Below are positions 18,184 to 49,768 of a stretch of DNA of 64,000 bases, piece after piece. Where the stretch lies: positions 24,162-88,161 of the forward strand of contig CANGKZ010000008.1 of the NCBI GenBank assembly GCA_947454705.1. Reading direction: 5' to 3'. Numbering within the stretch: the stretch's first letter is position 1; each line of letters starts with the position of its first letter. The stretch is from Verrucomicrobiota bacterium (lineage in GTDB: Bacteria > Verrucomicrobiota > Verrucomicrobiia > Limisphaerales > UBA9464). The notes beneath the pieces were generated by a model that was not told the DNA's origin, ran no database searches, and saw only the letters and a program-made list of their open reading frames with translations. The translations under genes and the position numbers were made by a program.

Positions 18184-18259
18184 TGGTGGAGCCGACAGGA
18201 TTCGAACCTGCGACCCTCACAATGCCATTGTGATGCTCTACCAACTGAGCTACGACCCC
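18184..18259 (-). tRNA. tRNA-Ala (anticodon GGC)
   Basis: The reverse complement is GGGGTCGTAGCTCAGTTGGTAGAGCATCACAATGGCATTGTGAGGGTCGCAGGTTCGAATCCTGTCGGCTCCACCA. It folds as a cloverleaf with a G3:U70 pair, anticodon loop AUGGCAU, a GGTTCGAATCC T-arm and an encoded CCA. Confidence 0.9.
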
Positions 18260-37865: not shown

Positions 37866-39026
37866 CTAGCGCCGGAACGACTGGGCGAAATCGTCGGTCG
37901 TGACCTCGCGCACCGTTTTCTCGAATCGCGAATCGCGGATCCGGCGCTGCAACTCGGCTTCCCATGCGGCGCCATCGAGGGGCATCTGGATCGATTGTCC
38001 AAGAATGGACGAATACACCATGGAATTGGCGAGCTCGACTGAATGCATGCCGTCGGCTCCCGGTGCGATCAATGGGGCACCATCGAGAACGGCAGCAACA
38101 AAGTTGTCCATCAAGGCCGCATGCGGCGCGGGGTGATTTTCAAACGGAAGATCGTGCTCGGTGACCGCGGGTTTGCTGAATCCCACGGTTGCGGTGCGGC
38201 TCCATTCCAAGGCATCCGTCTCGTTTTCGAGGAAGGTGAGCTTGTTGTTCTCCAGCACGAGCCGGCCCTTGGAACCGGCCAGTTCGAGTCGATTCGTCCC
38301 CGGGGCTTCGCCGGTGCTGGTGATGAAGACGCCGGTGGCTCCGTGTGACCATTCCAGGTACGCGGTGACCTGATCCTCGACCTCAATGTTGTGCCATCGA
38401 CCCAGTTGGGCAAAACCGCGAACGGACGACGGCATGCCGAGGATCCAGGACAAGACATCGAGATTGTGCAGGCACTGGTTCAACAACACCCCGCCGCCTT
38501 CGCCGCGCCAGGTCGCGCGCCATCCGCCGCTGGAATAGTAGGCATCGGTCCGGAACCAATCGGTGATCAGCCAGCTCACACGTTGCAGCTTTCCGAGCCG
38601 TCCGCTCTCCAGCAGCTCGCGGATGCGGGTGTATCGGGGTTCCACCCGGAGCTGAAACATTCCGGCGAGGATTTGCTTCGGATGCTGCGCGGCACACTTC
38701 AGCAGTCGCTCCGCGTCGGCCTTGTGGGCGGAAATTGGTTTTTCCACCATGACGTGAAGGCCGGCTTCAAGCGCTTCAATGCCGAGGCTGGTGTGTTGGT
38801 AATGAGGGGTTGCGATCAACACGGCGTCGATCGTACCGGACCGCATCATCGCCCCGGCGTCGGTCCACACCGCGAGACCGCGTTCCTTCCACGGCTCGAG
38901 TTTGACGGGATTGGGGGCGCAAACCGCCCGGAGCTCGCATCGGCCCACCTTGCCCGCGAGCAGGTATTCGGCATGGTGCCGACCAATGTTGCCAATGCCG
39001 ATCAATCCGAGGCGCAGCGTGGACAT
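37866..39026 (-). CDS. Gfo/Idh/MocA family oxidoreductase
   Basis: ATG at 39026 gives MSTLRLGLIGIGNIGRHHAEYL, a Rossmann start. The protein has a typical C-terminal dimerisation region. Confidence 0.9.
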   Translation of the reverse strand: MSTLRLGLIGIGNIGRHHAEYLLAGKVGRCELRAVCAPNPVKLEPWKERGLAVWTDAGAMMRSGTIDAVLIATPHYQHTSLGIEALEAGLHVMVEKPISAHKADAERLLKCAAQHPKQILAGMFQLRVEPRYTRIRELLESGRLGKLQRVSWLITDWFRTDAYYSSGGWRATWRGEGGGVLLNQCLHNLDVLSWILGMPSSVRGFAQLGRWHNIEVEDQVTAYLEWSHGATGVFITSTGEAPGTNRLELAGSKGRLVLENNKLTFLENETDALEWSRTATVGFSKPAVTEHDLPFENHPAPHAALMDNFVAAVLDGAPLIAPGADGMHSVELANSMVYSSILGQSIQMPLDGAAWEAELQRRIRDSRFEKTVREVTTDDFAQSFRR

Positions 39027-39158
39027 GCCTTCAGTGTGTGCGGGCGGCGGGGGCCGCATCAAGCCAAGGCGTTTAGCGAAACCGGGAAATGGTTCGGCCG
39101 ACTGCGATGAAGTGACTCGCCCGAATCACACGCCGTGTGCGAGCGAACATCGCCGGCC

Positions 39159-40015: not shown

Positions 40016-40050
40016 CCGAAGCTTTTGGCACTCGCGCCGCGGCGCCGTCC

Positions 40051-40085
40051 CCACCCTTCAACCCTTCAACATTTTAACCCTTCAA
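40051..40085. repeat. Solo family-A right-type arm (cacccttcaacccttcaacattttaacccttcaac)
   Basis: Read directly from the sequence. It sits immediately upstream of the desaturase-family gene start. Confidence 0.6.
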
Positions 40086-40099
40086 CCGCCTCCTGCGGA

Positions 40100-40915
40100 A
40101 TGATCGACCCGGCTCCAATTCTGCACTGGCGTCCGACATTGAGCCTCGGATGGCTCATCGCGCTGCTGGTCTGGGAGAATTGGCGACCGTGCTTCGCCCT
40201 GTTCGGCTGCAGTGAGGAACGGGGACGCCACGGGCTTCGCAATGTTGCGCTCTCGTTGATCAATGTGCTGATGGTCAGCCTCCTGTTTGCGGGCGCGTGG
40301 TCCAGCATCGCTGCCTGGTCTGCAAATCACTCCATCGGCGTGCTGCACTGGCTTCCGCTGGGTGGTTTTCTCCACGCGGTCTTCGCCCTCCTGGCATTGG
40401 ATTTTTGGACCTACGCCTGGCACCGGATTTGTCACCAAGTGCCGATGCTCTGGAAATTCCACGCCGTGCACCACGCGGATCGATGCATGGATGTCACCAC
40501 CTCGAACCGATTTCACATGGTGGAGATTTTTCTGTCGTCGCTGTTGCGAATCCCGCTGATCGCGCTGGTGGGAGTGCACTTTGGCGAACTGGTCCTTTAC
40601 GAAACGGTCCTCCAAGTCTGCGTGCAGTGGCAGCACGCAAACATCCGCATTCCCGCGGATTGGGAGCGTCGGATCTCAGCCGTGTTGATCACTCCCGGTC
40701 TTCACAAAGTGCATCACTCCAATCTCCAGCCGGAGACCGATTCCAACTACTCGTCGCTGCTCTCGATCTGGGACCGGTGGATGGGAACGCGCTGCGTGAG
40801 AGAGGATCTGGAACGCATCCAATTCGGGATCGACGGCGAGCCTGAGTCTGCTCCGAATGCGGAGACGCTATCAGGATTGATACGACGCCCGTTTGGGGCC
40901 AAAGCGGCGGAATGA
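40100..40915 (+). CDS. Sterol desaturase / fatty acid hydroxylase family protein
   Basis: Histidine boxes HRICH, HAVHH and HKVHH in a polytopic protein. ATG at 40100 (MIDPAPIL...). Confidence 0.85.
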   Translation: MIDPAPILHWRPTLSLGWLIALLVWENWRPCFALFGCSEERGRHGLRNVALSLINVLMVSLLFAGAWSSIAAWSANHSIGVLHWLPLGGFLHAVFALLALDFWTYAWHRICHQVPMLWKFHAVHHADRCMDVTTSNRFHMVEIFLSSLLRIPLIALVGVHFGELVLYETVLQVCVQWQHANIRIPADWERRISAVLITPGLHKVHHSNLQPETDSNYSSLLSIWDRWMGTRCVREDLERIQFGIDGEPESAPNAETLSGLIRRPFGAKAAE

Positions 40916-41079: not shown

Positions 41080-42933
41080 TCACGGGGATTCCCGGACGAC
41101 GGTGAGGCGGTCGAGGGGTACGGAATCGAGCTTCTGGTGTTTTCCACCGGGCCAGGTGATTTCAATGGAGTCCACACGGTTGGTGGACCCGAGTCCGAAA
41201 GTGACCGGGAGTTCGCTCGAGCTAAGATAACTGCGGGTGCTGGTGACTTGGCGCCATTGTTTGGCACCGCCCGACACGAGTTCCACGGAGGCTCCGATGG
41301 CATCGCGGTTCGATTTGGAACCTTCGAGTTTCAATCGAACGAAATGATGTCCCGTCGTCTGTTCATTGCGCAGCAGCATCGGCGGTCCGCCCACCTGGGT
41401 GAGCACCACGTCGAGATCTCCGTCGCCGTCGATGTCGGCATACGCGCTTCCGCGGCCGACCCGGGATTGGAACAGGTCCGCACCGGCGCGTTCCGCCGTG
41501 GCGGAGACCAAGCCGCCATCGCCCGCATTCCAGAACAATTGGGCAGGCTGTCGATACGACTGACTGGCCTGGACCTTTGAGATTTCCTCCTCGAGGTGCC
41601 CGTTGCAGGTGAGCACGTCGAGACGCCCGTCGAGGTCATAGTCGAAGAAGAAGATTCCGAACTTCAGCAACAGACGGCTGGCCGGGCCGATTCCCCAGGC
41701 AATGGCATCGTCGGTGAAGAGCAGGGGATCTTCCTTGGCCACGTAGAACGCGGTCATCTCGTTGGCGAAATTGCCGATGGTAACGGCCATCTTGCCGTCG
41801 CCGGTGAAGCGCGCGGCATCAATGCCCATGGCGCCGCGGGTGTTTCCGGCGCCGTCGAAGGCGAGTCCGGTCAGGCCGCCGATCTCGCGGAACTTTCCAT
41901 CCTTGGTGTTTTCAAACACGAAGTTCTGAACCGTGTCATTGGCCACCACGAGGTCGGGGTATCCGTCGTGATTGAGATCCACCGCGGTCACGCCGAGTGA
42001 CTTCCCAGCCGGGACACCGGTGGCGGCATTGCGAACCTGAACTCCGGAGGTCGCTGAAACATCGGTGAAACGCCCTCCACCTTCGTTGTGATACAGGCGG
42101 GAATAGGCACCCTGGAAATTCATCGGCGGTCCGTAGGCGCGGTGCGTGCCGTCGATCTTGTATCCGACCTCGGCATCCAGCTCGCGGGACCAGCGAACGT
42201 AATTGGCCACGAACAAATCCAGGCGTCCGTCGTTGTCGTAATCAAACCACACGGCTGCGGTGCTCCAATCCTTGGCATCTCCGCCCACGCCGGCGAGGGC
42301 GGTGGTTTCGGAGAAATGGCCCGCTCCGTCATTGTGAAACAAGCGGGCGCCGCCGACGCCGGTGATCAGCACATCGGGCCGGCCATCGTTGTCGTAATCG
42401 CCAGTGGCCACACCCATTCCGAAGAAAGGAACGTCCAATCCAGATCCGCGGGTCACGTCGGAAAAGTGGACGACCCCATTTTTGGTTTCGTTGTGATACA
42501 GCGCGGCGGTCGTTTGCGCTCCGCCCGGGGTCCAGGGCCAGGACGTACTGTTGATGAACAGGAGGTCGGGCAGTCCGTCTCCGTCGTAATCGAAGAACGC
42601 CACGCCGCCGCCCATGGTTTCGGGCAGGAGCTTTTCTCCGGTGGCTCCGTTGAAGTGTTTGAAGGTGATGCCGGCCGACGCAGTGATGTCGGTGAACTTG
42701 ATCTGCGGAACCGCCGCGGCAGGGCGTTCGGCAACCTGGGGAGCGGCGAGGGCGGTGACTTTGGTGACCGGCTTCCGGACCCCGACGCGCAGCAGCAGCA
42801 CCACGCCGCCTCCCATCACCGCGAGGATCACCAGAAGCACCAGCGACATTTTCAATCCGCGGGTGATCGCAGCATCGTCCGAGACAATCGGTTCCTCGGA
42901 GTCAGGCGGGACGGGCGGTGGCGTGGACGGCAT
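41080..42933 (-). CDS. CRTAC1 family protein (FG-GAP/VCBS repeats plus ASPIC/UnbV C-terminal domain)
   Basis: Repeated FDYDGDGLPDL / DYDNDGRPD / DIDGDGDLD motifs. The C-terminus SNRDAIGASVELVSGGAKQWRQVTSTRSYLSSSELPVTFGLG...ITWPGG is typical of ASPIC/UnbV. It has an N-terminal TM anchor. Confidence 0.88.
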   Translation of the reverse strand: MPSTPPPVPPDSEEPIVSDDAAITRGLKMSLVLLVILAVMGGGVVLLLRVGVRKPVTKVTALAAPQVAERPAAAVPQIKFTDITASAGITFKHFNGATGEKLLPETMGGGVAFFDYDGDGLPDLLFINSTSWPWTPGGAQTTAALYHNETKNGVVHFSDVTRGSGLDVPFFGMGVATGDYDNDGRPDVLITGVGGARLFHNDGAGHFSETTALAGVGGDAKDWSTAAVWFDYDNDGRLDLFVANYVRWSRELDAEVGYKIDGTHRAYGPPMNFQGAYSRLYHNEGGGRFTDVSATSGVQVRNAATGVPAGKSLGVTAVDLNHDGYPDLVVANDTVQNFVFENTKDGKFREIGGLTGLAFDGAGNTRGAMGIDAARFTGDGKMAVTIGNFANEMTAFYVAKEDPLLFTDDAIAWGIGPASRLLLKFGIFFFDYDLDGRLDVLTCNGHLEEEISKVQASQSYRQPAQLFWNAGDGGLVSATAERAGADLFQSRVGRGSAYADIDGDGDLDVVLTQVGGPPMLLRNEQTTGHHFVRLKLEGSKSNRDAIGASVELVSGGAKQWRQVTSTRSYLSSSELPVTFGLGSTNRVDSIEITWPGGKHQKLDSVPLDRLTVVRESP

Positions 42934-42966
42934 GGGGGGATATCAAATCGGATACGAACCAAAAAC

Positions 42967-45864
42967 TCAACGCGCTGCGGTGCGGATTGCCGGTGGGATT
43001 CCGGCGTCAGTGCGGTGCAGGTCGTAGATGACGATCGTTTGCGCGGCATGGTCGGCGGCCGCGTTGCGACGCCGTGCAGCGGCTACGGCCCGGTCGCGGG
43101 CGTTGTCGTCCGGACGGTACTTCTCATGCAGCGCCCGGTGCGTGGCGGCCTTCTCCTTGTCGCCGAGCTGCGCGCGGATCAAGGCGAGGTTGTAATGCGC
43201 GGTCATGTTCTCGGTGTCGATGGCGAGGGTGTCCTCGAATCGCTTGGCCGCCATTTCCAGGAACTGACGCTGCCGCGCGGGATCTGCGCGTTCCATTTTC
43301 GCGCGTTCGAACAGGGTTTGTCCGAGCTCGTTGATCACTTCGTAATCGCGGCTGAAGTTCAGTCCGCGTTTTTCCAGTTCCGGATATCGATCGTCCAGAA
43401 TGGAGCTGAAATCGCGGATCGCGCGGTCGAGGTAGCCATTCTGCTTGTTCACCAGGCCGTTGAGCCAGGCCACAGTCCATCGATTGGCGGCGGGTTTAAA
43501 TCGGTTGGTGTCGTTGGCGCGATCCAACGCAGCGACGGCGTCATCGAGTCGGCCTTCCTTGAAGAACACACGAGCCAGATTGAGCGGTCCGTCGGCGCGG
43601 CCCAGTTTCTCCACCCGACTGAAGGCTTCGGTGGCCTGGATCAACTCGCCGCGTTCGCTGCCCTTGTCGCCCTTGTTGAAGAGCCCAATGCCGTAGTCGT
43701 TCCATCGCTGCCACTCGGGAATGTCACGTGTCTGCGATGCCACCGCACCGGGCAGGGGATCCCCGCCCTCGATCGGGAAGGTGATCTTGTCGGAGCACAT
43801 CACGGTGATCGGCAGCGGATTGGTCAGCTGCAGCGCCGAGTCGCGGGTGTAGCCCTTCGCAAAGGTGTAGTTGTAGTAAATGGTGTCGAACTTCCGGTAG
43901 TTCAACTTCAGCTCCACGGTCAGGGGGCCGGTTTGATTCTCCGGAACGGTCAGCTTGTAGTGAACCACCGAGGCTGCACCCGGCGGGATCTGGTTGTTGT
44001 AGAGCGGAACAAAGATGTCCTGCGCGTTGCGTCGATCGATTCGGTATCCGTCTCGGTCGAGCATGTACACGTTGACGAAGTGCGACCACGGATCGACTTC
44101 GTTGAACTTTCCGAGCCCGCCGCTGCGGCCGATTTGACGGCCCTTGGAATCGGTCACCGAGGCATCGACCCAAAGTTCGTTGGAATCCACGGTGCCCTGG
44201 GTGAGGGGGTGTCCGAGTTTCAACGTGCGAACCACGGCTTCGAGCAGGTACGTCTTGCCGGGCTTGAGCTTCGGCACCGAGGGACGCAGCGGGGCGATGA
44301 GCGGACTGTCGATCGTGGATCCATCCTTCAACCCAAACGCATCGATCCGCACCGTGTCCTTCATGAACTCCTGGTGCTTGCGAATGATCTCCGCCTTCAC
44401 CTCGGCCGGCTCATTGCGAACATAGGCCACGCCGGTGTTGGCGCTGGGATAGAGATGATTGTGGATCGCGGTGTAGGTGTTGGTCCCATAGACCTTGGCC
44501 GCGAAGTCGTCCGACTTCTGCAACGGCATGTGGCAATCGTTGCAATTGGCCTTGGCTTGGTCGGGGTAATAGAAGCTCCGCGCGTTCACGCCCGACACAC
44601 CGGAGAGCAGGAAGGTGTCGTAGTGGTTCTGCCCGCGCAGCCAGTCTTTGTAGCTGTTGACCGTTCGCGGGATGCTGACCTTGTGGCACGAGGAACAGAA
44701 CTCGGCCGATTTGTGGAAATCCTTGAGGAAGGTCTTTTTGTGGAACCCAGGCTTTCCCTTCACGAGCTGCTTGTTGATGAAGAACGCCAGCGAGTTCGTG
44801 GGCGTGCTGGCGAAGGGATAGTGGATCGGTTCCTCGATGGTGTAATTGCCGTTGCCGATCCGCCCGTGGTCCGCGCCTTCCAGGGAAGTGATGGAATGGC
44901 AGGTCACGCAGGTGATGCCGGCCAGCGCGGTGGGATGGCGCTCGAAATCAAAATTGGGATCATCGAACGCCCCGCTGAAGAACGGCACCGGATCGTGGCA
45001 GCCGGCGCACCAGCGCGACATCTGGACATTGCCGTCGCGCTTCATCGCCAGCTCGCGAGTGCCCTTGATGCTGGCCAGGTAGAACGGGTTGTTGAAGGAG
45101 CTGAACCGGTGGGCGGAATGGACCCAGCCGTCGTACACATCCTTGTGGCACTGGAGGCAGTACTCGTTGTCCATCAGCTTCTGCGCCGGGATGAAATTGC
45201 CCGAAGCGGTCCGGGCGCTGCTCGGTTGGAAGTAACGTTCGCCCTCCTTGGGGCCGCGGACGTTCCACACCCGGGGATCGTGCTTGTGCAGCGCGATCAT
45301 CGCCACCACCAGCGCCGCCACGGCGCCCGCCCAGCTCGCACCGAGCTTCCAACGAATCCGGGGCCCCGCCAGCCGGTGCAGGATGTAAAGCCAGATGCAG
45401 AGCAGGGGGGTGATGACATGCGCCCAGTAGGCGGTGGAACGCGAAGTCGCCCCGCGCACCTGCAGCCATTCCAGTCCCTCCACCCGCATCAGCACCACGC
45501 CCGATCCCAGCAGGACCAGCGAAATGGCGAGCAACACGTACCCCACCCAGACCGCTTTCCGATTAGGCCGGTTCCACGTGTTCCAGATGTGAATCCCGTT
45601 GAAGACCAAAAACGGTACAACGAACAGCAGCCCGAGGATCAGGTGGGCGAGGAACTGGATCTGGTAGAAATAATTTTGGTACGACACCCCCTTGGCCCGG
45701 TCGAGCCACTCCAGGAAGGTCACCGCGGCGAGGTAGACCGAGTTCACCCCAAGGATGGCGAGCAGGGCCCAGACCGTGTTCAACACCCAGGTCAGGCGGG
45801 GACCCACCGCCTTGACGTAGCGGCGGCGGGCGGGTTGGGGAGCTGGCGTTGGGGTGTCGGCCAT
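42967..45864 (-). CDS. Membrane-anchored multiheme c-type cytochrome fused to TPR repeats
   Basis: It has five predicted N-terminal TM helices, some carrying His. Five CxxCH motifs follow (CLQCH, CAGCH, CVTCH, CSSCH, CNDCH). The C-terminal third is TPR-like. The gene ends 33 bp upstream of the CRTAC1 gene. Confidence 0.85.
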   Translation of the reverse strand: MADTPTPAPQPARRRYVKAVGPRLTWVLNTVWALLAILGVNSVYLAAVTFLEWLDRAKGVSYQNYFYQIQFLAHLILGLLFVVPFLVFNGIHIWNTWNRPNRKAVWVGYVLLAISLVLLGSGVVLMRVEGLEWLQVRGATSRSTAYWAHVITPLLCIWLYILHRLAGPRIRWKLGASWAGAVAALVVAMIALHKHDPRVWNVRGPKEGERYFQPSSARTASGNFIPAQKLMDNEYCLQCHKDVYDGWVHSAHRFSSFNNPFYLASIKGTRELAMKRDGNVQMSRWCAGCHDPVPFFSGAFDDPNFDFERHPTALAGITCVTCHSITSLEGADHGRIGNGNYTIEEPIHYPFASTPTNSLAFFINKQLVKGKPGFHKKTFLKDFHKSAEFCSSCHKVSIPRTVNSYKDWLRGQNHYDTFLLSGVSGVNARSFYYPDQAKANCNDCHMPLQKSDDFAAKVYGTNTYTAIHNHLYPSANTGVAYVRNEPAEVKAEIIRKHQEFMKDTVRIDAFGLKDGSTIDSPLIAPLRPSVPKLKPGKTYLLEAVVRTLKLGHPLTQGTVDSNELWVDASVTDSKGRQIGRSGGLGKFNEVDPWSHFVNVYMLDRDGYRIDRRNAQDIFVPLYNNQIPPGAASVVHYKLTVPENQTGPLTVELKLNYRKFDTIYYNYTFAKGYTRDSALQLTNPLPITVMCSDKITFPIEGGDPLPGAVASQTRDIPEWQRWNDYGIGLFNKGDKGSERGELIQATEAFSRVEKLGRADGPLNLARVFFKEGRLDDAVAALDRANDTNRFKPAANRWTVAWLNGLVNKQNGYLDRAIRDFSSILDDRYPELEKRGLNFSRDYEVINELGQTLFERAKMERADPARQRQFLEMAAKRFEDTLAIDTENMTAHYNLALIRAQLGDKEKAATHRALHEKYRPDDNARDRAVAAARRRNAAADHAAQTIVIYDLHRTDAGIPPAIRTAAR

Positions 45865-46214
45865 GGGGAAACGCTATGGGAACCGCAGTTTGCAGCCAAG
45901 CCTGCCACAGGTTCCGATTCCGCAAACCCCGGCGGGGCGGAACGCTTAAAATCAGGGGCAAATCGCAATAAATCGGAACGTTTGATCGAAAAAGCGCCCA
46001 AAAATGCGATTCCGGGGATGTGTTCAACGTCTTCCGCGAAAGCTTCTTGTAACCCGCTTGCCCCCTGTCCGGTCTCCGCCAACGCAACTCCGCGTGATCC
46101 GGTAGCCCAGTTCGAACCAGCCAGCCAGTTAGTCATCAGTCCAACACGAGCCGACTTTCCATTCGCGTTGACCACGCCGTCCCGCCAATCTCCGCCCGTA
46201 CCCTGTTCGATCCC

Positions 46215-47744
46215 ATGTCAACCTCCTCGAAATCAAACCCAGTTCAATGGGTGATCGTGACCGCCGTCGTCGCCGGTGCGGCCTACGGCCTCTGGCAGTG
46301 GAAATCCAAGCCCGGTAGCGCAACCGGCCCCGTGGAGTTCCGGACCAATGTGGTGTCCCGCGGCGAGATCACCCAGGCGGTCACCGCGAACGGCGCCCTG
46401 AATCCGGTGCGCGTGGTTTCGGTGGGCAGCCAGGTGTCCGGCATCATCACCGAGATGAATGTCGATTTTAACTCCCCGGTGAAGGAGGGCGACGTGCTGG
46501 CCAAGATCGATCCTTCGACCTTCGAGCGCGACCTCGTTTCGGCGCAGGCGGAACTGGCCAACGCCAAGGCCTCGCTGGAACTCGCCCAGTTCAATGAGAA
46601 GCGGGCCCGCAGTCTGTTTGCCTCAAAATTGGTCTCCGAGTCCGATTTCCAGCAGGCCGTCGTCGCCCTGCACCAGGCTGAGGCGGTGGTCAAGACCCGC
46701 CAGGCGTCCGTCGAGCGCGCGCAGGTCAGTCTCGACAAGACCACCATCACCGCCCCGATCAGTGGCATCGTGATTTCCCGCAAGGTGGACGCCGGCCAAA
46801 CCGTCGCCGCCAGCTTCAACACGCCGGAAATGTTCACCATCGCCAACGACCTGCGCAAAATGCAGATCGAAACCATGGTCAGCGAAGCGGACGTGGGCGG
46901 GGTGGAAGAGGGGCAAAAGGTGAACTTCTCGGTGGACGCTTTCCCGCAGCGCCAGTTTTCCGGCAAGGTGAAGCAACTTCGGTACGCGGCCGTGACCAAT
47001 CAGAACGTGGTGACCTACACCGCCGTCGTCGAAGTGGACAACCGCGACATGAAGTTGCGCCCCGGTATGACCGCCAATCCGGTGTCGATCATTACCGCGA
47101 GCCGGACCAACGCGCTGCGGATTCCGAATGCCGCGCTGCGGTTCCGTCCCTCGGACATGAGTCTGGTGGTTTCCACCAACGACGCCGTGGCCAAGGCCGC
47201 CGGAACCAATGCAACGGCCGGAGCTGGTGGATCGCGCCGACCCGAAGGCATGCCGATTCCTCCCTGGGTGGCGGAAGGCCGTCGTCCAACCGACGACGAA
47301 CGCAAGGCCTTTGACGCCACGCTCACTCCTGAACAGCGCGAGCAGATGGCCAAGTTCCGCGCTCAAATGCAGGCGGCCCGTGCTGCAGGCGGGGGCGGTG
47401 GTGCTGGCGGTGGAATGGGAGGCGGCGGAGGCATGGGTGGATTCGGCGGCGGTATGCCCGGGATGGGCGGAATGGGCGGCGGTGGTGCCCGGAGCGCCAT
47501 GCCCGAAGGGCCGGCCATTCGTACGATCTACATCGTGGATCGCGAAAAATCCCAACCCGGCAAAATGTTGCTTTCTGCCGTGTCGGTGAAGACCGGCATC
47601 AGCGATGGTACCAACACGGAAATCTCCGAGGGACTCAAGGACGGCGATGTGGTGGTGACCGGCGTTGCCACTCCGACGACCGCGACCGCGGCCCCGGCCG
47701 GCCCGCTCGGTGGCAATCCGTTCGGTGGCGGACCGCGCCGTTAA
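46215..47744 (+). CDS. Efflux periplasmic adaptor (HlyD/MacA-like) with Gly/Met-rich insertion
   Basis: N-terminal TM, a coiled-coil hairpin (AQAELANAKASLELAQ ... ) and beta-barrel segments. A GGGGGAGGGMGGGGGMGGFGGGMPGMGGMGGGG tract lies near the C-terminus. Confidence 0.88.
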   Translation: MSTSSKSNPVQWVIVTAVVAGAAYGLWQWKSKPGSATGPVEFRTNVVSRGEITQAVTANGALNPVRVVSVGSQVSGIITEMNVDFNSPVKEGDVLAKIDPSTFERDLVSAQAELANAKASLELAQFNEKRARSLFASKLVSESDFQQAVVALHQAEAVVKTRQASVERAQVSLDKTTITAPISGIVISRKVDAGQTVAASFNTPEMFTIANDLRKMQIETMVSEADVGGVEEGQKVNFSVDAFPQRQFSGKVKQLRYAAVTNQNVVTYTAVVEVDNRDMKLRPGMTANPVSIITASRTNALRIPNAALRFRPSDMSLVVSTNDAVAKAAGTNATAGAGGSRRPEGMPIPPWVAEGRRPTDDERKAFDATLTPEQREQMAKFRAQMQAARAAGGGGGAGGGMGGGGGMGGFGGGMPGMGGMGGGGARSAMPEGPAIRTIYIVDREKSQPGKMLLSAVSVKTGISDGTNTEISEGLKDGDVVVTGVATPTTATAAPAGPLGGNPFGGGPRR

Positions 47745-47788
47745 GCCAAACCCGCGCTCCAACCACAGCCCCAAGCCCAATTCCCCCC

Positions 47789-48550
47789 GTGTCCGTTCCG
47801 GTCATCCAACTCGAGGACTTCCGCAAGACCTACATCACCGGCGAAGTCGAGGTGAAGGCGGTCCGAGGTGTCAGCCTGAGCATTCAACCCGGTGAGTTCG
47901 TTGCCATCATGGGCGCCAGCGGTTCTGGCAAGAGCACCATGATGAACACGCTCGGCTGCCTCGACCGGCCCACGAGCGGCAAGTTTTTGCTCGATGGCGT
48001 GAACGTGGGCGAGTTGAACCGCGATGAACTGGCGGACCTTCGAAATCGCAAAATCGGTTTCGTGTTCCAGGGCTTCAACCTGCTGGCTCGAACCAGTGCG
48101 GTGGAGAATGTCGAGTTGCCGATGCTCTACAGCCGGCCTCCGATCCCAGCCGCAGAGCAGCGTCAGCGGGCCATGGAATCGCTCGCACTGGTCGGCCTCG
48201 CCAAACGCTACGATCACACGCCGAGTCAGCTCTCCGGCGGTCAACAGCAGCGCGTGGCCATCGCCCGCGGACTGGTGAACCGTCCCAAGCTGCTGCTCGC
48301 CGACGAACCCACCGGGAATCTCGATTCGCGAACCAGCATCGAGATCATGGGCATTTTCCAGGAGCTCAACGACAAGGGCATCACCATCGTCATGGTGACC
48401 CACGAGCTCGACATCGCGCGGTACTGCCGCCGCGTGGTGGTCATGCGCGACGGCCTGGTCCGCAGTGACGAACTGGTCAAGGACCGCTTCCTGGCCAGCG
48501 AGGAACTCGCCAAGCTCGACGCGGAACAAAAGGCCGTCCAACTCACCTGA
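47789..48550 (+). CDS. ABC transporter ATP-binding protein (MacB/LolD-type)
   Basis: Walker A GASGSGKST, signature LSGGQQQRVAIARGL and Walker B LLLADEPTGNLD. The start is GTG. Confidence 0.93.
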   Translation: MSVPVIQLEDFRKTYITGEVEVKAVRGVSLSIQPGEFVAIMGASGSGKSTMMNTLGCLDRPTSGKFLLDGVNVGELNRDELADLRNRKIGFVFQGFNLLARTSAVENVELPMLYSRPPIPAAEQRQRAMESLALVGLAKRYDHTPSQLSGGQQQRVAIARGLVNRPKLLLADEPTGNLDSRTSIEIMGIFQELNDKGITIVMVTHELDIARYCRRVVVMRDGLVRSDELVKDRFLASEELAKLDAEQKAVQLT

Positions 48551-48553
48551 GCC

Positions 48554-49768
48554 ATGTTTGCCGTCCTACGCATCGCCCTTCGCGCCCTTCGACGCAACAT
48601 CCTGCGTTCCTTCCTCACCATGCTCGGAATCATCGTCGGCATCGCCGCGGTGATCGTCGGCGTCAGCATGGGCACCGGAGCCAAGGCCGAGGTGGACAAG
48701 CAGATCGCCGGCATGGGCCAGAACCTCCTCGTGGTCATGTCCGGCAACATGGCCCGCGGCGGCGTCCGCGGCGGATTCGGTGCCGCACCCAATATTTCGC
48801 CGGCGGACTATGAAGCGCTCCGACGCGAGATCCCCGGGGTTGTCGCGGTCAGCCCCGAAGTCCGCGCCAATGCTCAGATTGCCGCAGGAAATCAGAACAG
48901 TTTCGTTCAGGTCTCCGGTGTGAGTTCGGACTATGCCTCGGTCCGCTCATGGCAGTTCCGCAGCGGTGCCAATTTCACCGAAGGCGATGTTCGCAACGCC
49001 AACAAGGTCTGCCTCATCGGCACCACCACCGCCAAAACCCTCTTCGGCGAAGGCGTGGATCCGGTGGGGCAAATCGTCCGCATCAAGAACGCTCCGTTCA
49101 CCATCATGGGCTGGCTCGCACCGAAGGGCGTGAACAGCTTTGGTCAGGACCAGGACGACATCGTCATCATGCCCTACACCAGCGCGATGAAGCGGTTGTC
49201 GGGCGACACCATGTTCCGTTCCCTCTCGGTTCAGGCGGAAGGCCCTGCGATCATCGCCGATGTTCAGACCAACATCTACGAACTCCTCCGCCAGCGGCAC
49301 AAGATCCAGCCCGGACGCGACGATGACTTCATGGTTCGCAACCAGCAGGAGATGAGCGATTTCTTCAACGCGAACAACCGCATCATGACCATCCTGATCG
49401 GATTCTTCGCCGGCATTTCGTTGGTCGTCGGCGGCATCGGCATCATGAACATCATGCTCGTGTCGGTGACCGAACGAACCCGCGAAATCGGCATCCGTCT
49501 CGCGGTGGGTGCGCGCGGACGCGATGTGCTCAAGCAGTTCCTCACCGAGGCCGTGCTCCTCAGCATCGCCGGCGGCGGCATGGGCATTGCCACGGGATTC
49601 TGGCTCGCTCCGCTGCTCACCAAATATTTCCAATTCCCCACGCTCATCTCCAACGACTCCGTCATCATGGCCTTCACGGTCAGCGCCGTGATCGGAATCG
49701 TCTTCGGATTCTTCCCCGCGCTCAAAGCCGCGCGCCTGGATCCCATCGACGCGCTCCGCTTCGAATAA
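48554..49768 (+). CDS. ABC transporter permease (MacB/FtsX-type)
   Basis: 404 aa with an N-terminal TM, a large periplasmic domain and a C-terminal FtsX-like 3-TM bundle (TERTREIGIRLAVGAR). Confidence 0.9.
   Translation: MFAVLRIALRALRRNILRSFLTMLGIIVGIAAVIVGVSMGTGAKAEVDKQIAGMGQNLLVVMSGNMARGGVRGGFGAAPNISPADYEALRREIPGVVAVSPEVRANAQIAAGNQNSFVQVSGVSSDYASVRSWQFRSGANFTEGDVRNANKVCLIGTTTAKTLFGEGVDPVGQIVRIKNAPFTIMGWLAPKGVNSFGQDQDDIVIMPYTSAMKRLSGDTMFRSLSVQAEGPAIIADVQTNIYELLRQRHKIQPGRDDDFMVRNQQEMSDFFNANNRIMTILIGFFAGISLVVGGIGIMNIMLVSVTERTREIGIRLAVGARGRDVLKQFLTEAVLLSIAGGGMGIATGFWLAPLLTKYFQFPTLISNDSVIMAFTVSAVIGIVFGFFPALKAARLDPIDALRFE

Follow-up and report, generated by a model that had tools for sequence, protein, structure and literature searches.

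A two-gene unit pairing a membrane-anchored penta-haem protein with a CRTAC1-family propeller: a candidate quinone-linked oxidoreductase of Verrucomicrobiota and other phyla

What could be the common task of a membrane-bound multihaem protein ending in tetratricopeptide repeats (TPR) and of a CRTAC1-family protein encoded directly behind it? This question is raised by two genes, named p1 and p2 here, on the reverse strand of a stretch of 64,000 nucleotides of Verrucomicrobiota DNA; this whole stretch is called the window below. A first-pass annotation, made from the letters alone, had described p1 as a protein of 965 amino acids with a positively charged N-terminus, five hydrophobic helices, several of them with His, and five CxxCH motifs within about 200 residues, followed by a beta-rich region and TPR, which ends 33 bp before a membrane-anchored CRTAC1 gene on the same strand. 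This description was found to be accurate. The N-terminal tail has a net charge of +4, the five helices were recovered by hydropathy and in the AlphaFold2 (AF2) model, the motifs at residues 236-441 occupy 210 residues, and strands and then paired helices follow in the AF2 model; the spacer lies at 42934-42966 and the transmembrane (TM) helix of p2 at residues ~29-48. The interpretation that we favour, with a probability of roughly 0.55, is that p1 and p2 constitute a quinone-linked, periplasm-facing b2c5 oxidoreductase, in which the TPR arm of p1 would dock the propeller of p2.

Haem-bearing domains of p1

The conservation of p1 was followed in an alignment of 83 full-length homologues, the identity of which goes down to 27%. 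The earlier annotation had named the loss of the CxxCH motifs in orthologues as evidence that would speak against it; all five motifs (at residues 236, 286, 319, 390 and 441, with no variant motifs) were invariant in 83 of the 83 sequences. In the cap carrying these motifs Pfam recognised Cytochrome_C554 at residues 236-324 and a NapC/NirT-like domain at 379-465. The latter match (Cytochrom_NNT) was partial, covering profile positions 28-92 of 174 with 27.3 bits (cutoff 24.1). Assignment of p1 to the NapC/NirT/NrfH tetrahaem family was rejected, since this profile match is partial, the NrfH equivalog gave 19.9 bits against a cutoff of 134, and the architecture differs.

The full-length AF2 model of p1, calculated from the 83-sequence alignment, had a predicted local distance difference test score (pLDDT) of 93.1 and a predicted template modelling score (pTM) of 0.90, and its Foldseek matches were swamped by TPR proteins. 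The model of residues 1-715 (pLDDT 92.6) matched the low-potential penta-haem cytochrome c552 of Thermochromatium tepidum (5ZE8) with an E value of 1.7e-13 and a probability of 1.00. The cap and the sandwich of p1 were superimposed on 5ZE8 with a TM-score (target) of 0.64 over 504 columns at ~15% identity, and this was the only match below E 1e-3, all others being above 4e-3. By sequence comparison with phmmer 5ZE8 was found at E 1.9e-6 (over haems 1-3) and MccSep (9WT8/9WT9) at E 0.005. The pattern CxxCHxDxxxxWxxSxH at haem 1 and CxxCHM at haem 5 are common to p1 and these relatives. The haem and beta region of p1 belongs to the penta-haem c552/ExtKL/MccSep ("PHC") fold. The PHC family includes c552, ExtKL, Gsu2801 and cable-bacteria cytochromes, in which a five-haem helical cap sits on an immunoglobulin (Ig)-like beta-sandwich; these cytochromes have been classed as potentially catalytic, with a penta-coordinate haem (PMC11976967). 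PtdA is a further relative (bioRxiv 10.1101/2023.11.21.568154).

The earlier statement that the architecture has no characterised counterpart has to be divided accordingly. It stands for the combination of domains, since full-text searches of the literature found no description of the p1 fusion or of its pairing with CRTAC1, and it falls for the haem and beta region, which has the PHC fold. Among the curated NCBIfam and Pfam families none spans the whole p1 or its membrane domain. The porin-multihaem system of freshwater Verrucomicrobia was considered and set aside as a different, octahaem system.

Apart from the motif residues, exactly four His (H252, H375, H470 and H552) were invariant in the 83-sequence alignment, and the same set was present in a divergent subfamily, which is 30-34% identical to p1, has a longer linker between the TM domain and the haems, and was collected as loci fetched from metagenomes. 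Since four invariant distal His are available for five c-type haems, one c-haem is probably not an ordinary bis-His haem. H552, retained in 83/83 homologues, is located in a loop of the Ig-like domain with the invariant pattern G551-H552-x-(F/L)-T-x-G-T-x-D-S-N-E-x-W (G-H-P-L-T-Q-G-T-V-D-S-N-E-L-W in p1).

A comparable loop occurs in MccSep, where the active site is haem 2, with Cys239 on its distal side and the catalytic Sec325 on a D-G-U-P loop of the Ig domain, while the other four haems (1, 3, 4 and 5) have bis-His ligation (10.1101/2025.11.18.688581). H552 precedes the strand aligned with MccSep by 96 residues and Sec325 precedes the same strand by 91. Since the Ig-like domain of p1 alone matched no PDB sequence (and no Pfam family), the equivalence of these two residues is one that we infer; the H552 loop would be part of a functional site. 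A polysulfide reductase of the MccSep type was rejected for p1, as it has no haem-ligating Cys and neither Sec nor Cys in the loop. The only non-motif Cys residues are C156 and C690, neither of which is conserved, there is no in-frame TGA, and the region equivalent to C239 of MccSep is a conserved LSGVSG loop.

The membrane domain of p1 consists of helices at residues 22-54, 65-96, 102-125, 139-165 and 172-193 (Kyte-Doolittle hydropathy and DSSP of the AF2 model), and its even-numbered loops are basic, like the N-tail. Since the charges, by the positive-inside rule, assign the N-terminus to the cytoplasm and the chain leaves TM5 on the other side, the haem domain is placed in the periplasm, a topology which fits the covalent attachment of c-haems there. 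The periplasmic location of the haems had already been proposed from the odd number of helices, and it is now backed both by the agreement of p1 with the positive-inside rule and by the CRTAC1 partner of the sister subfamily, which is an exported lipoprotein.

TM2 contains His74 and His92, and TM4 contains His149 and His163 (residues 147-165 are WAHVITPLLCIWLYILHRL). These four residues were retained in 82, 79, 82 and 80 of the 83 homologues, respectively; with conservation of this degree, neither they nor the CxxCH motifs have arisen by chance. In a separate alignment of 40 TM-domain sequences (A7), which joins two subfamilies with 21-29% identity between them, the complete set of invariant columns was L45, H74, H92, G108, G122, H149, H163, R164 and P214. 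The His spacings, 18 residues in TM2 and 14 in TM4, were identical in the divergent subfamily. In the AF2 model the helix ends on the periplasmic side are 9 residues from H74 and 10 from H149, while those on the cytoplasmic side are 4 residues from H92 and 2 from H163; four conserved His on two helices are thus paired at two depths, as in the functional class of di-haem cytochromes b. G108 and G122, both invariant in A7, are 14 residues apart in TM3; the haem-packing glycines in helix C of cytochrome b are likewise 14 residues apart. Such a residue pattern is the classic mark of di-haem cytochromes b that span the membrane, and it points to the binding of two b-type haems. The possibility of b-haems in the membrane part, raised in the first-pass annotation, is strengthened by these four His and two Gly, invariant and at matched depths.

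A match of the TM region to an unrelated known family had been named as another sign that the earlier interpretation was wrong. No such match appeared in Pfam, in PDB sequences or by Foldseek. The window's sequence and 30 orthologues, searched singly at E<=10, had no Pfam family match; the weak leads among 30 TM sequences, DUF2231 (10/30, best E 0.009) and DUF7139 (12/30, best E 3.5e-4), were inconsistent and below any threshold, and were discarded. PF00033, PF01292 and PF02665 did not match any of 30 TM-domain sequences even at E<=10. Likewise, no PDB sequence was matched at E<=10 by the 40-sequence TM profile, and the top Foldseek hits of the residues 1-715 model included no match to the TM domain. 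Comparison of the TM profile with NarI, FdnI, CybB and MsrQ of E. coli by hhalign gave probabilities of at most 5%, and below 1% with the diverse profile. Kinship with NarI was tried and abandoned: a 30-sequence profile (A5) put H74 and H92 on the haem-ligand His residues of NarI TM5 (E 0.008, 5%), and this was gone with A7 (0.5%).

Some relatives share the haem, Ig and TPR core with p1 and carry a different N-terminus. In P0243, P0191 and P0155 the 5-TM domain is replaced by a signal- or lipoprotein-like N-terminus or by a TM region of 3-4 helices. Since these N-termini differ, the membrane domain behaves as a separable module.

Linkage of p1 and p2

The C-terminal part of p1 is a TPR domain. 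Several Pfam TPR families matched residues 755-908, all below their own cutoffs; residues 717-940 form paired helices in the AF2 model and matched MamA and consensus TPR (CTPR) proteins in Foldseek (E ~1e-5), and a profile search of the PDB with p1 also gave TPR proteins.

The p2 protein is a member of the CRTAC1/ASPIC-UnbV family, as it has both the propeller with Ca2+ loops and the C-terminal UnbV_ASPIC domain. The Pfam matches were FG-GAP_3 (E 4.6e-38, in six stretches), FG-GAP (E 2.4e-15) and UnbV_ASPIC (PF07593, E 6.3e-21), and the only solved relative, human CRTAC1 (9ETN), was matched at E 2.6e-15. Public sources list this family as "CRTAC1 family protein" or "enediyne biosynthesis protein E4" (UnbV). 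In 51 p2 orthologues about 90 residues were invariant, among them H446 as the sole invariant His, and no Cys was. The five DxDxDG-type Ca2+ motifs were invariant as well, in agreement with the calcium-binding beta-propeller suggested earlier.

In the window's subfamily p2 starts with an acidic N-tail (EE..DDAxIGR), a TM helix and the linker motif [VLI]-T-x-[LIM]-x-A-P, all of which are conserved. In the divergent subfamily the CRTAC1 partner has a lipoprotein signal (L-[AS]-[AG]-C) and then a conserved P-x-Y...Y-A linker (for example L160:8898-10685 and L123:8979-10709, among loci L088-L167). Since the partner is a lipoprotein there, the CRTAC1 protein is exported and is membrane-tethered in the periplasm. 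The usual ligands of TPR domains are short linear peptides or surfaces of partner proteins, thus the conserved p2 linkers are candidates for binding by the TPR arm of p1. In p1, too, the N-tail is conserved, but it is basic (KYVRAVGPRLR), that of p2 being acidic; an acid-base contact between the two tails in the cytoplasm is conceivable.

The linkage of the two families across genomes, on which the earlier proposal had been made to depend, was counted in 80 loci of species-representative genomes, 72 of which continue for 500 nt or more past the 3' end of the p1 homologue. In 63 of these 72 loci, in three phyla, the p1 homologue was followed in the same orientation by a CRTAC1 homologue. Its start was less than 400 nt away in 55 loci, less than 1.5 kb away in 6 and further in 2, and the gaps between the two open reading frames (ORFs) in related loci were mostly -35 to ~80 nt. 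In case of the divergent subfamily the CRTAC1 homologue, 38-46% identical to p2, was found directly downstream in 65 of the 66 metagenome loci with room for it. All-against-all clustering of the ORFs of 160 loci revealed no third conserved neighbour gene; apart from shadow ORFs, the clusters contained nothing but housekeeping neighbours confined to particular lineages (LpxC, acetate kinase, an enolase-superfamily protein, BacA and an ABC ATPase). The unit that is conserved consists of p1 and p2 and of no further gene.

The p1 family is large and widely distributed. More than 6641 relatives were found in a collection of 5.8 billion proteins, of which the best 120 were all full length and 63-89% identical; at E<=1e-30 the family comprised 726 clusters among the 1.84 billion 50%-identity representatives searched, and relatives were present in at least 586 stretches of species-representative genomes. 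The nearest relatives come from metagenome-assembled genomes (MAGs) of Verrucomicrobiota, and the family was found in freshwater, soil and marine metagenomes. The genome loci belong to Verrucomicrobiota, Planctomycetota (among them Rhodopirellula maiorica SM1, L073, and a Gimesia MAG, L080) and Acidobacteriota/Thermoanaerobaculia. In public sources p1 is labelled only as "TPR repeat protein" or "multiheme c-type cytochrome".

Two variations of the gene arrangement were observed. Extra CRTAC1 paralogues, 25-64% identical to p2, flank the pair in ~10 of 80 genome loci and ~21 of 80 metagenome loci, immediately 5' of p1 or 3' of p2, and some are devoid of the TM-anchor region (the loci include L019, L020, L037, L038, L048, L067, L072, L090, L110, L121, L130, L137, L140, L150 and L160). 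The presence of these paralogues hints that one cytochrome may serve several propellers through its TPR arm. In two Planctomycetaceae loci, both without a CRTAC1 partner (L077:13024-15306 and L078:12875-15157, both on the minus strand), a PSCyt2/PSD1 ("planctomycete-specific cytochrome") gene adjoins p1 in convergent orientation.

Proposed mechanism and rival explanations

For the function and the physical contact of p1 and p2 we infer the following arrangement. The two proteins would form a two-subunit complex anchored in the cytoplasmic membrane and facing the periplasm. The five-helix domain would hold two b-type haems stacked across the membrane, with His74 and His149 as ligands of the haem on the periplasmic side and His92 and His163 as ligands of that on the cytoplasmic side. 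TM5 would lead the chain to the periplasm, where the c552/MccSep-type cap, backed by the Ig-like domain, would carry the five c-haems. Electrons would move between the quinone pool, most likely at a quinone site next to one of the b-haems, and the c-haem chain. This chain would end at the haem without a conserved distal His, probably a site of catalysis or ligand binding, and the His552 loop would contribute to this site or adjoin it. The TPR solenoid of p1 would dock p2, in which no redox cofactor is predicted and whose propeller would be stabilised by Ca2+; p2 may bind the substrate, provide a channel or present a surface as a target.

Two stacked b-haems would argue for charge transfer across the membrane, because a periplasmic quinol site alone would not need them; a cytoplasmic-side quinone site, as in the redox loops of the FdnI type, or the reverse, is a possible arrangement. 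The earlier idea of a dedicated electron-transfer module is therefore retained in part: the redox interpretation is supported, while the protein may be an enzyme with one special haem, given the four distal His for five c-haems.

Several points weigh against the proposed oxidoreductase. In 9 of the 72 genome loci no CRTAC1 gene follows p1, and in several of these the next gene encodes LpxC, a transporter of the major facilitator superfamily, GntP or a PSCyt2/PSD1 protein. No signature of a redox cofactor is present in p2, and the role given to it is a guess; the orientation of its TM helix in the window's subfamily is ambiguous by the positive-inside rule. The putative binding of b-haems by p1 was deduced from the residue pattern, the domain having no detectable homology to a known family. 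Many of the carriers seem to be aerobic heterotrophs with no obvious substrate, and the p1/p2 family is known from sequences and predicted models alone.

A more far-reaching version is a tentative one: p1 and p2 might be the core of an unrecognised, widespread energy-conserving respiratory enzyme, with a new cytochrome-b fold and a CRTAC1 propeller which feeds or gates an open c-haem. The propeller is likened here to that of hydrazine synthase, the beta subunit, which has seven blades and no haem and serves the catalytic c-haems. If this version were true, it would give the first biochemical role of a bacterial CRTAC1/UnbV protein and reveal a new substrate of abundant Verrucomicrobiota, Planctomycetota and Acidobacteriota.

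Among the rival explanations the best supported one, which we regard as rather unlikely, takes p1 as a pure electron conduit, a quinol dehydrogenase or quinone reductase of the CymA/CbcL/ImcH type with seven six-coordinate haems and no catalytic site. Electrons would be handed to or from soluble or outer-envelope partners, and p2 and the TPR arm would do no more than scaffold the hand-over. The NapC/NirT match at residues 379-465, above its cutoff, and the CbcL-like architecture of b plus c haems agree with such a conduit, as does the fact that the T. tepidum c552 has no assigned catalytic function. H552 could also be the fifth distal His; however, even with H552 as a ligand the invariant non-motif His number four for five haems, one short. 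Moreover, the neighbourhood contains no conserved gene for a porin, an outer-membrane cytochrome or another redox protein, and MccSep, the one characterised relative of the fold, is an enzyme. The extreme conservation of the H552 loop and of about 90 residues of p2 suggests a specific site over a generic docking surface.

It is doubtful that the five-helix domain is a mere anchor, or serves a purpose other than haem binding, for instance the handling of metals or ligands, in a tethered penta-haem cytochrome that is fed by periplasmic carriers and has no b-haem link to quinone. In favour of this reading, none of the known cytochrome b families was found to be homologous to the domain, and in some relatives (P0243, P0191) its place is taken by a signal- or lipoprotein-like N-terminus or by a TM region of reduced length. 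A single helix would suffice for anchoring, however, as in p2, and the four His and two Gly are invariant at 21-29% identity, at matched depths and with the 18- and 14-residue spacings in both subfamilies. We consider it very unlikely that the pair is a redox-sensing or envelope-structural device, for example a haem sensor whose TPR and propeller bind the envelope or matrix. TPR and FG-GAP/CRTAC1 are classic interaction modules, human CRTAC1 (9ETN) is an extracellular matrix protein, and several CRTAC1 paralogues often cluster around p1; yet no kinase, cyclase, DNA-binding or other output domain was found in p1, p2 or the conserved neighbours, and seven membrane-spanning haems would far exceed the needs of a sensor. 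Finally, inherited synteny without functional coupling is highly improbable and cannot explain the adjacency of p1 and p2, despite the 9 of 72 genome loci without a downstream partner and the abundance of CRTAC1 genes in these phyla, because order, strand and gaps (-35 to 80 nt) persist across at least three phyla and down to ~30% (p1) and ~40% (p2) identity, while the other neighbours change.

The quinone-linked oxidoreductase thus proposed would, if real, be a new quinone-linked complex of three environmentally dominant, poorly cultivated phyla. It would establish a haem-b domain of a new type in the membrane, show that the PHC/MccSep enzyme fold also exists in a membrane-bound protein, and offer a testable first function for the bacterial CRTAC1/UnbV proteins, which the literature has so far known as an unexplained gene in hydrazine-synthase-like clusters and in enediyne cassettes. 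Since cultured carriers exist, namely Rhodopirellula maiorica SM1 and strains related to Gimesia, p1 and p2 are accessible and the question is open to experiment.

The locus and related known systems

Table 1. Features of the p1/p2 locus and of the adjacent exporter genes (positions refer to the window)
Feature	Position	Strand	Description
p1	42967..45864	-	965-aa fusion: 5-TM, five-haem-c cap, Ig-like beta-sandwich and TPR
p1 residues 1-215	45220..45864	-	basic N-tail and five TM helices; putative di-haem-b domain
p1 residues 216-503	44356..45219	-	alpha-helical cap with five CxxCH motifs
p1 CxxCH motifs	45145-45159, 44995-45009, 44896-44910, 44683-44697, 44530-44544	-	
p1 residues 504-715	43720..44355	-	Ig-like beta-sandwich; strands in AF2 model ~504-700
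p1 residues 716-965	42970..43719	-	TPR solenoid; candidate docking arm for p2
Spacer, p1 stop to p2 start	42934..42966	-	33 nt
p2	41080..42933	-	617-aa CRTAC1-family protein
p2 TM anchor, residues ~29-48	42790-42849	-	acidic N-tail before, linker after
p2 FG-GAP beta-propeller, residues ~75-540	41314-42711	-	
p2 UnbV_ASPIC domain, residues 545-610	41104-41301	-	
Divergent intergenic region 5' of p1	45865..46214	.	350 nt; presumed promoter region
HlyD-family adaptor	46215-47744	+	
ABC ATPase	47789-48550	+	
MacB/FtsX permease	48554-49768	+	

The GC contents at the three codon positions were 0.60/0.43/0.82 in p1 and 0.65/0.47/0.75 in p2, and since this pattern fits a GC-rich genome, both are real genes. 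An antisense ORF of 1388 codons at 42088-46254 (+) was rejected as a gene; with its mirrored codon GC (0.78/0.46/0.60) and no Pfam hit it is a shadow ORF. No sigma-70 consensus sites were found in 45865-46214, the sigma-70 consensus being uninformative for this phylum.

Since the flanking genes run divergently and convergently, p1 and p2 are a stand-alone two-gene unit. Divergent from p1 lies a MacAB-like tripartite exporter (46215-49768, +), which probably is not part of the p1/p2 system; a similar ABC ATPase is near the pair in 8 of 81 loci. On the other side a gene of the fatty-acid hydroxylase family (40025-40915, +) is convergent with p2, and beyond it there is a GFO/IDH/MocA oxidoreductase gene (37866-39062, -); neither is kept beside the pair in other loci. 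The only tRNA of the 64-kb window, and its only Rfam match, is a tRNA-Ala (GGC) at 18184-18259 (-).

Among the known systems the PHC cytochromes are similar to p1 in the order of a five-CxxCH cap and an Ig-like sandwich, as seen in 5ZE8. However, c552 and the other members (Geobacter ExtKL and Gsu2801, the cable-bacteria sPHC and lPHC, and PtdA) are soluble or signal-peptide proteins of ~400-450 residues, whereas p1 has in addition the N-terminal 5-TM domain with four invariant His, a TPR solenoid of ~250 residues and an obligate CRTAC1 neighbour. MccSep (GSU2936, 9WT8), a multihaem selenoprotein polysulfide reductase of Geobacter, is the sole functionally characterised member of the fold. It shares the cap and the Ig-like fold with p1, in which an invariant G551-H552-P553 loop may correspond to the D-G-U325-P loop of MccSep, but it is a soluble homotetramer without TM or TPR parts.

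The cytochromes CbcL/MtrH/MtoC, ImcH and NapC/NirT/CymA/NrfH are likewise multihaem c-type proteins of the cytoplasmic membrane which exchange electrons with the quinone pool. CbcL, with nine c-haem motifs and a HydC/FdnI-like di-haem b membrane domain, is a b/c fusion acting on quinol (PMC6295460). Its domain order is the opposite of that of p1: the HydC/FdnI-like TM domain is the last in CbcL, while the TM domain of p1 comes first and is unlike FdnI. None of these quinol dehydrogenases has a TPR arm or a CRTAC1 partner, and the haem domain of p1 has the PHC fold instead. With the di-haem cytochromes b (NarI, the cytochrome b of bc1/b6f, FdnI/HydC and CybB) p1 has in common two helices each bearing two His, and H187 and H205 in TM5 of NarI are also 18 residues apart, which is an analogy with TM2 of p1 only; no similarity of sequence or profile to these proteins survives.

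The CRTAC1 protein of humans is secreted to the matrix, UnbV is found in polyketide gene clusters, and neither of them is linked to cytochromes. In contrast, p2 is membrane-anchored (by a lipoprotein signal in case of the sister subfamily) and its gene is tied to that of p1. A parallel in gene content comes from the hydrazine synthase (HZS)-like clusters of non-anammox bacteria, in which a CRTAC1-family gene is situated between alpha-like and beta-gamma-like haem genes, some of the haem proteins carrying c554-type multihaem domains (PMC12758564); in the literature searched this is the only paper with the phrase "CRTAC1 family protein". The haem proteins of those clusters are, however, HZS-alpha-like and cytochrome-c-peroxidase-like beta-gamma proteins, with no b-type TM domain and no TPR. 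The parts of the p1/p2 unit, namely the PHC penta-haem fold, the TPR, the CRTAC1 propeller and the principle of a quinol-linked b/c cytochrome, are thus already known, while the combination of these parts, the orphan haem-b-like membrane domain and the obligate pairing with CRTAC1 are new.

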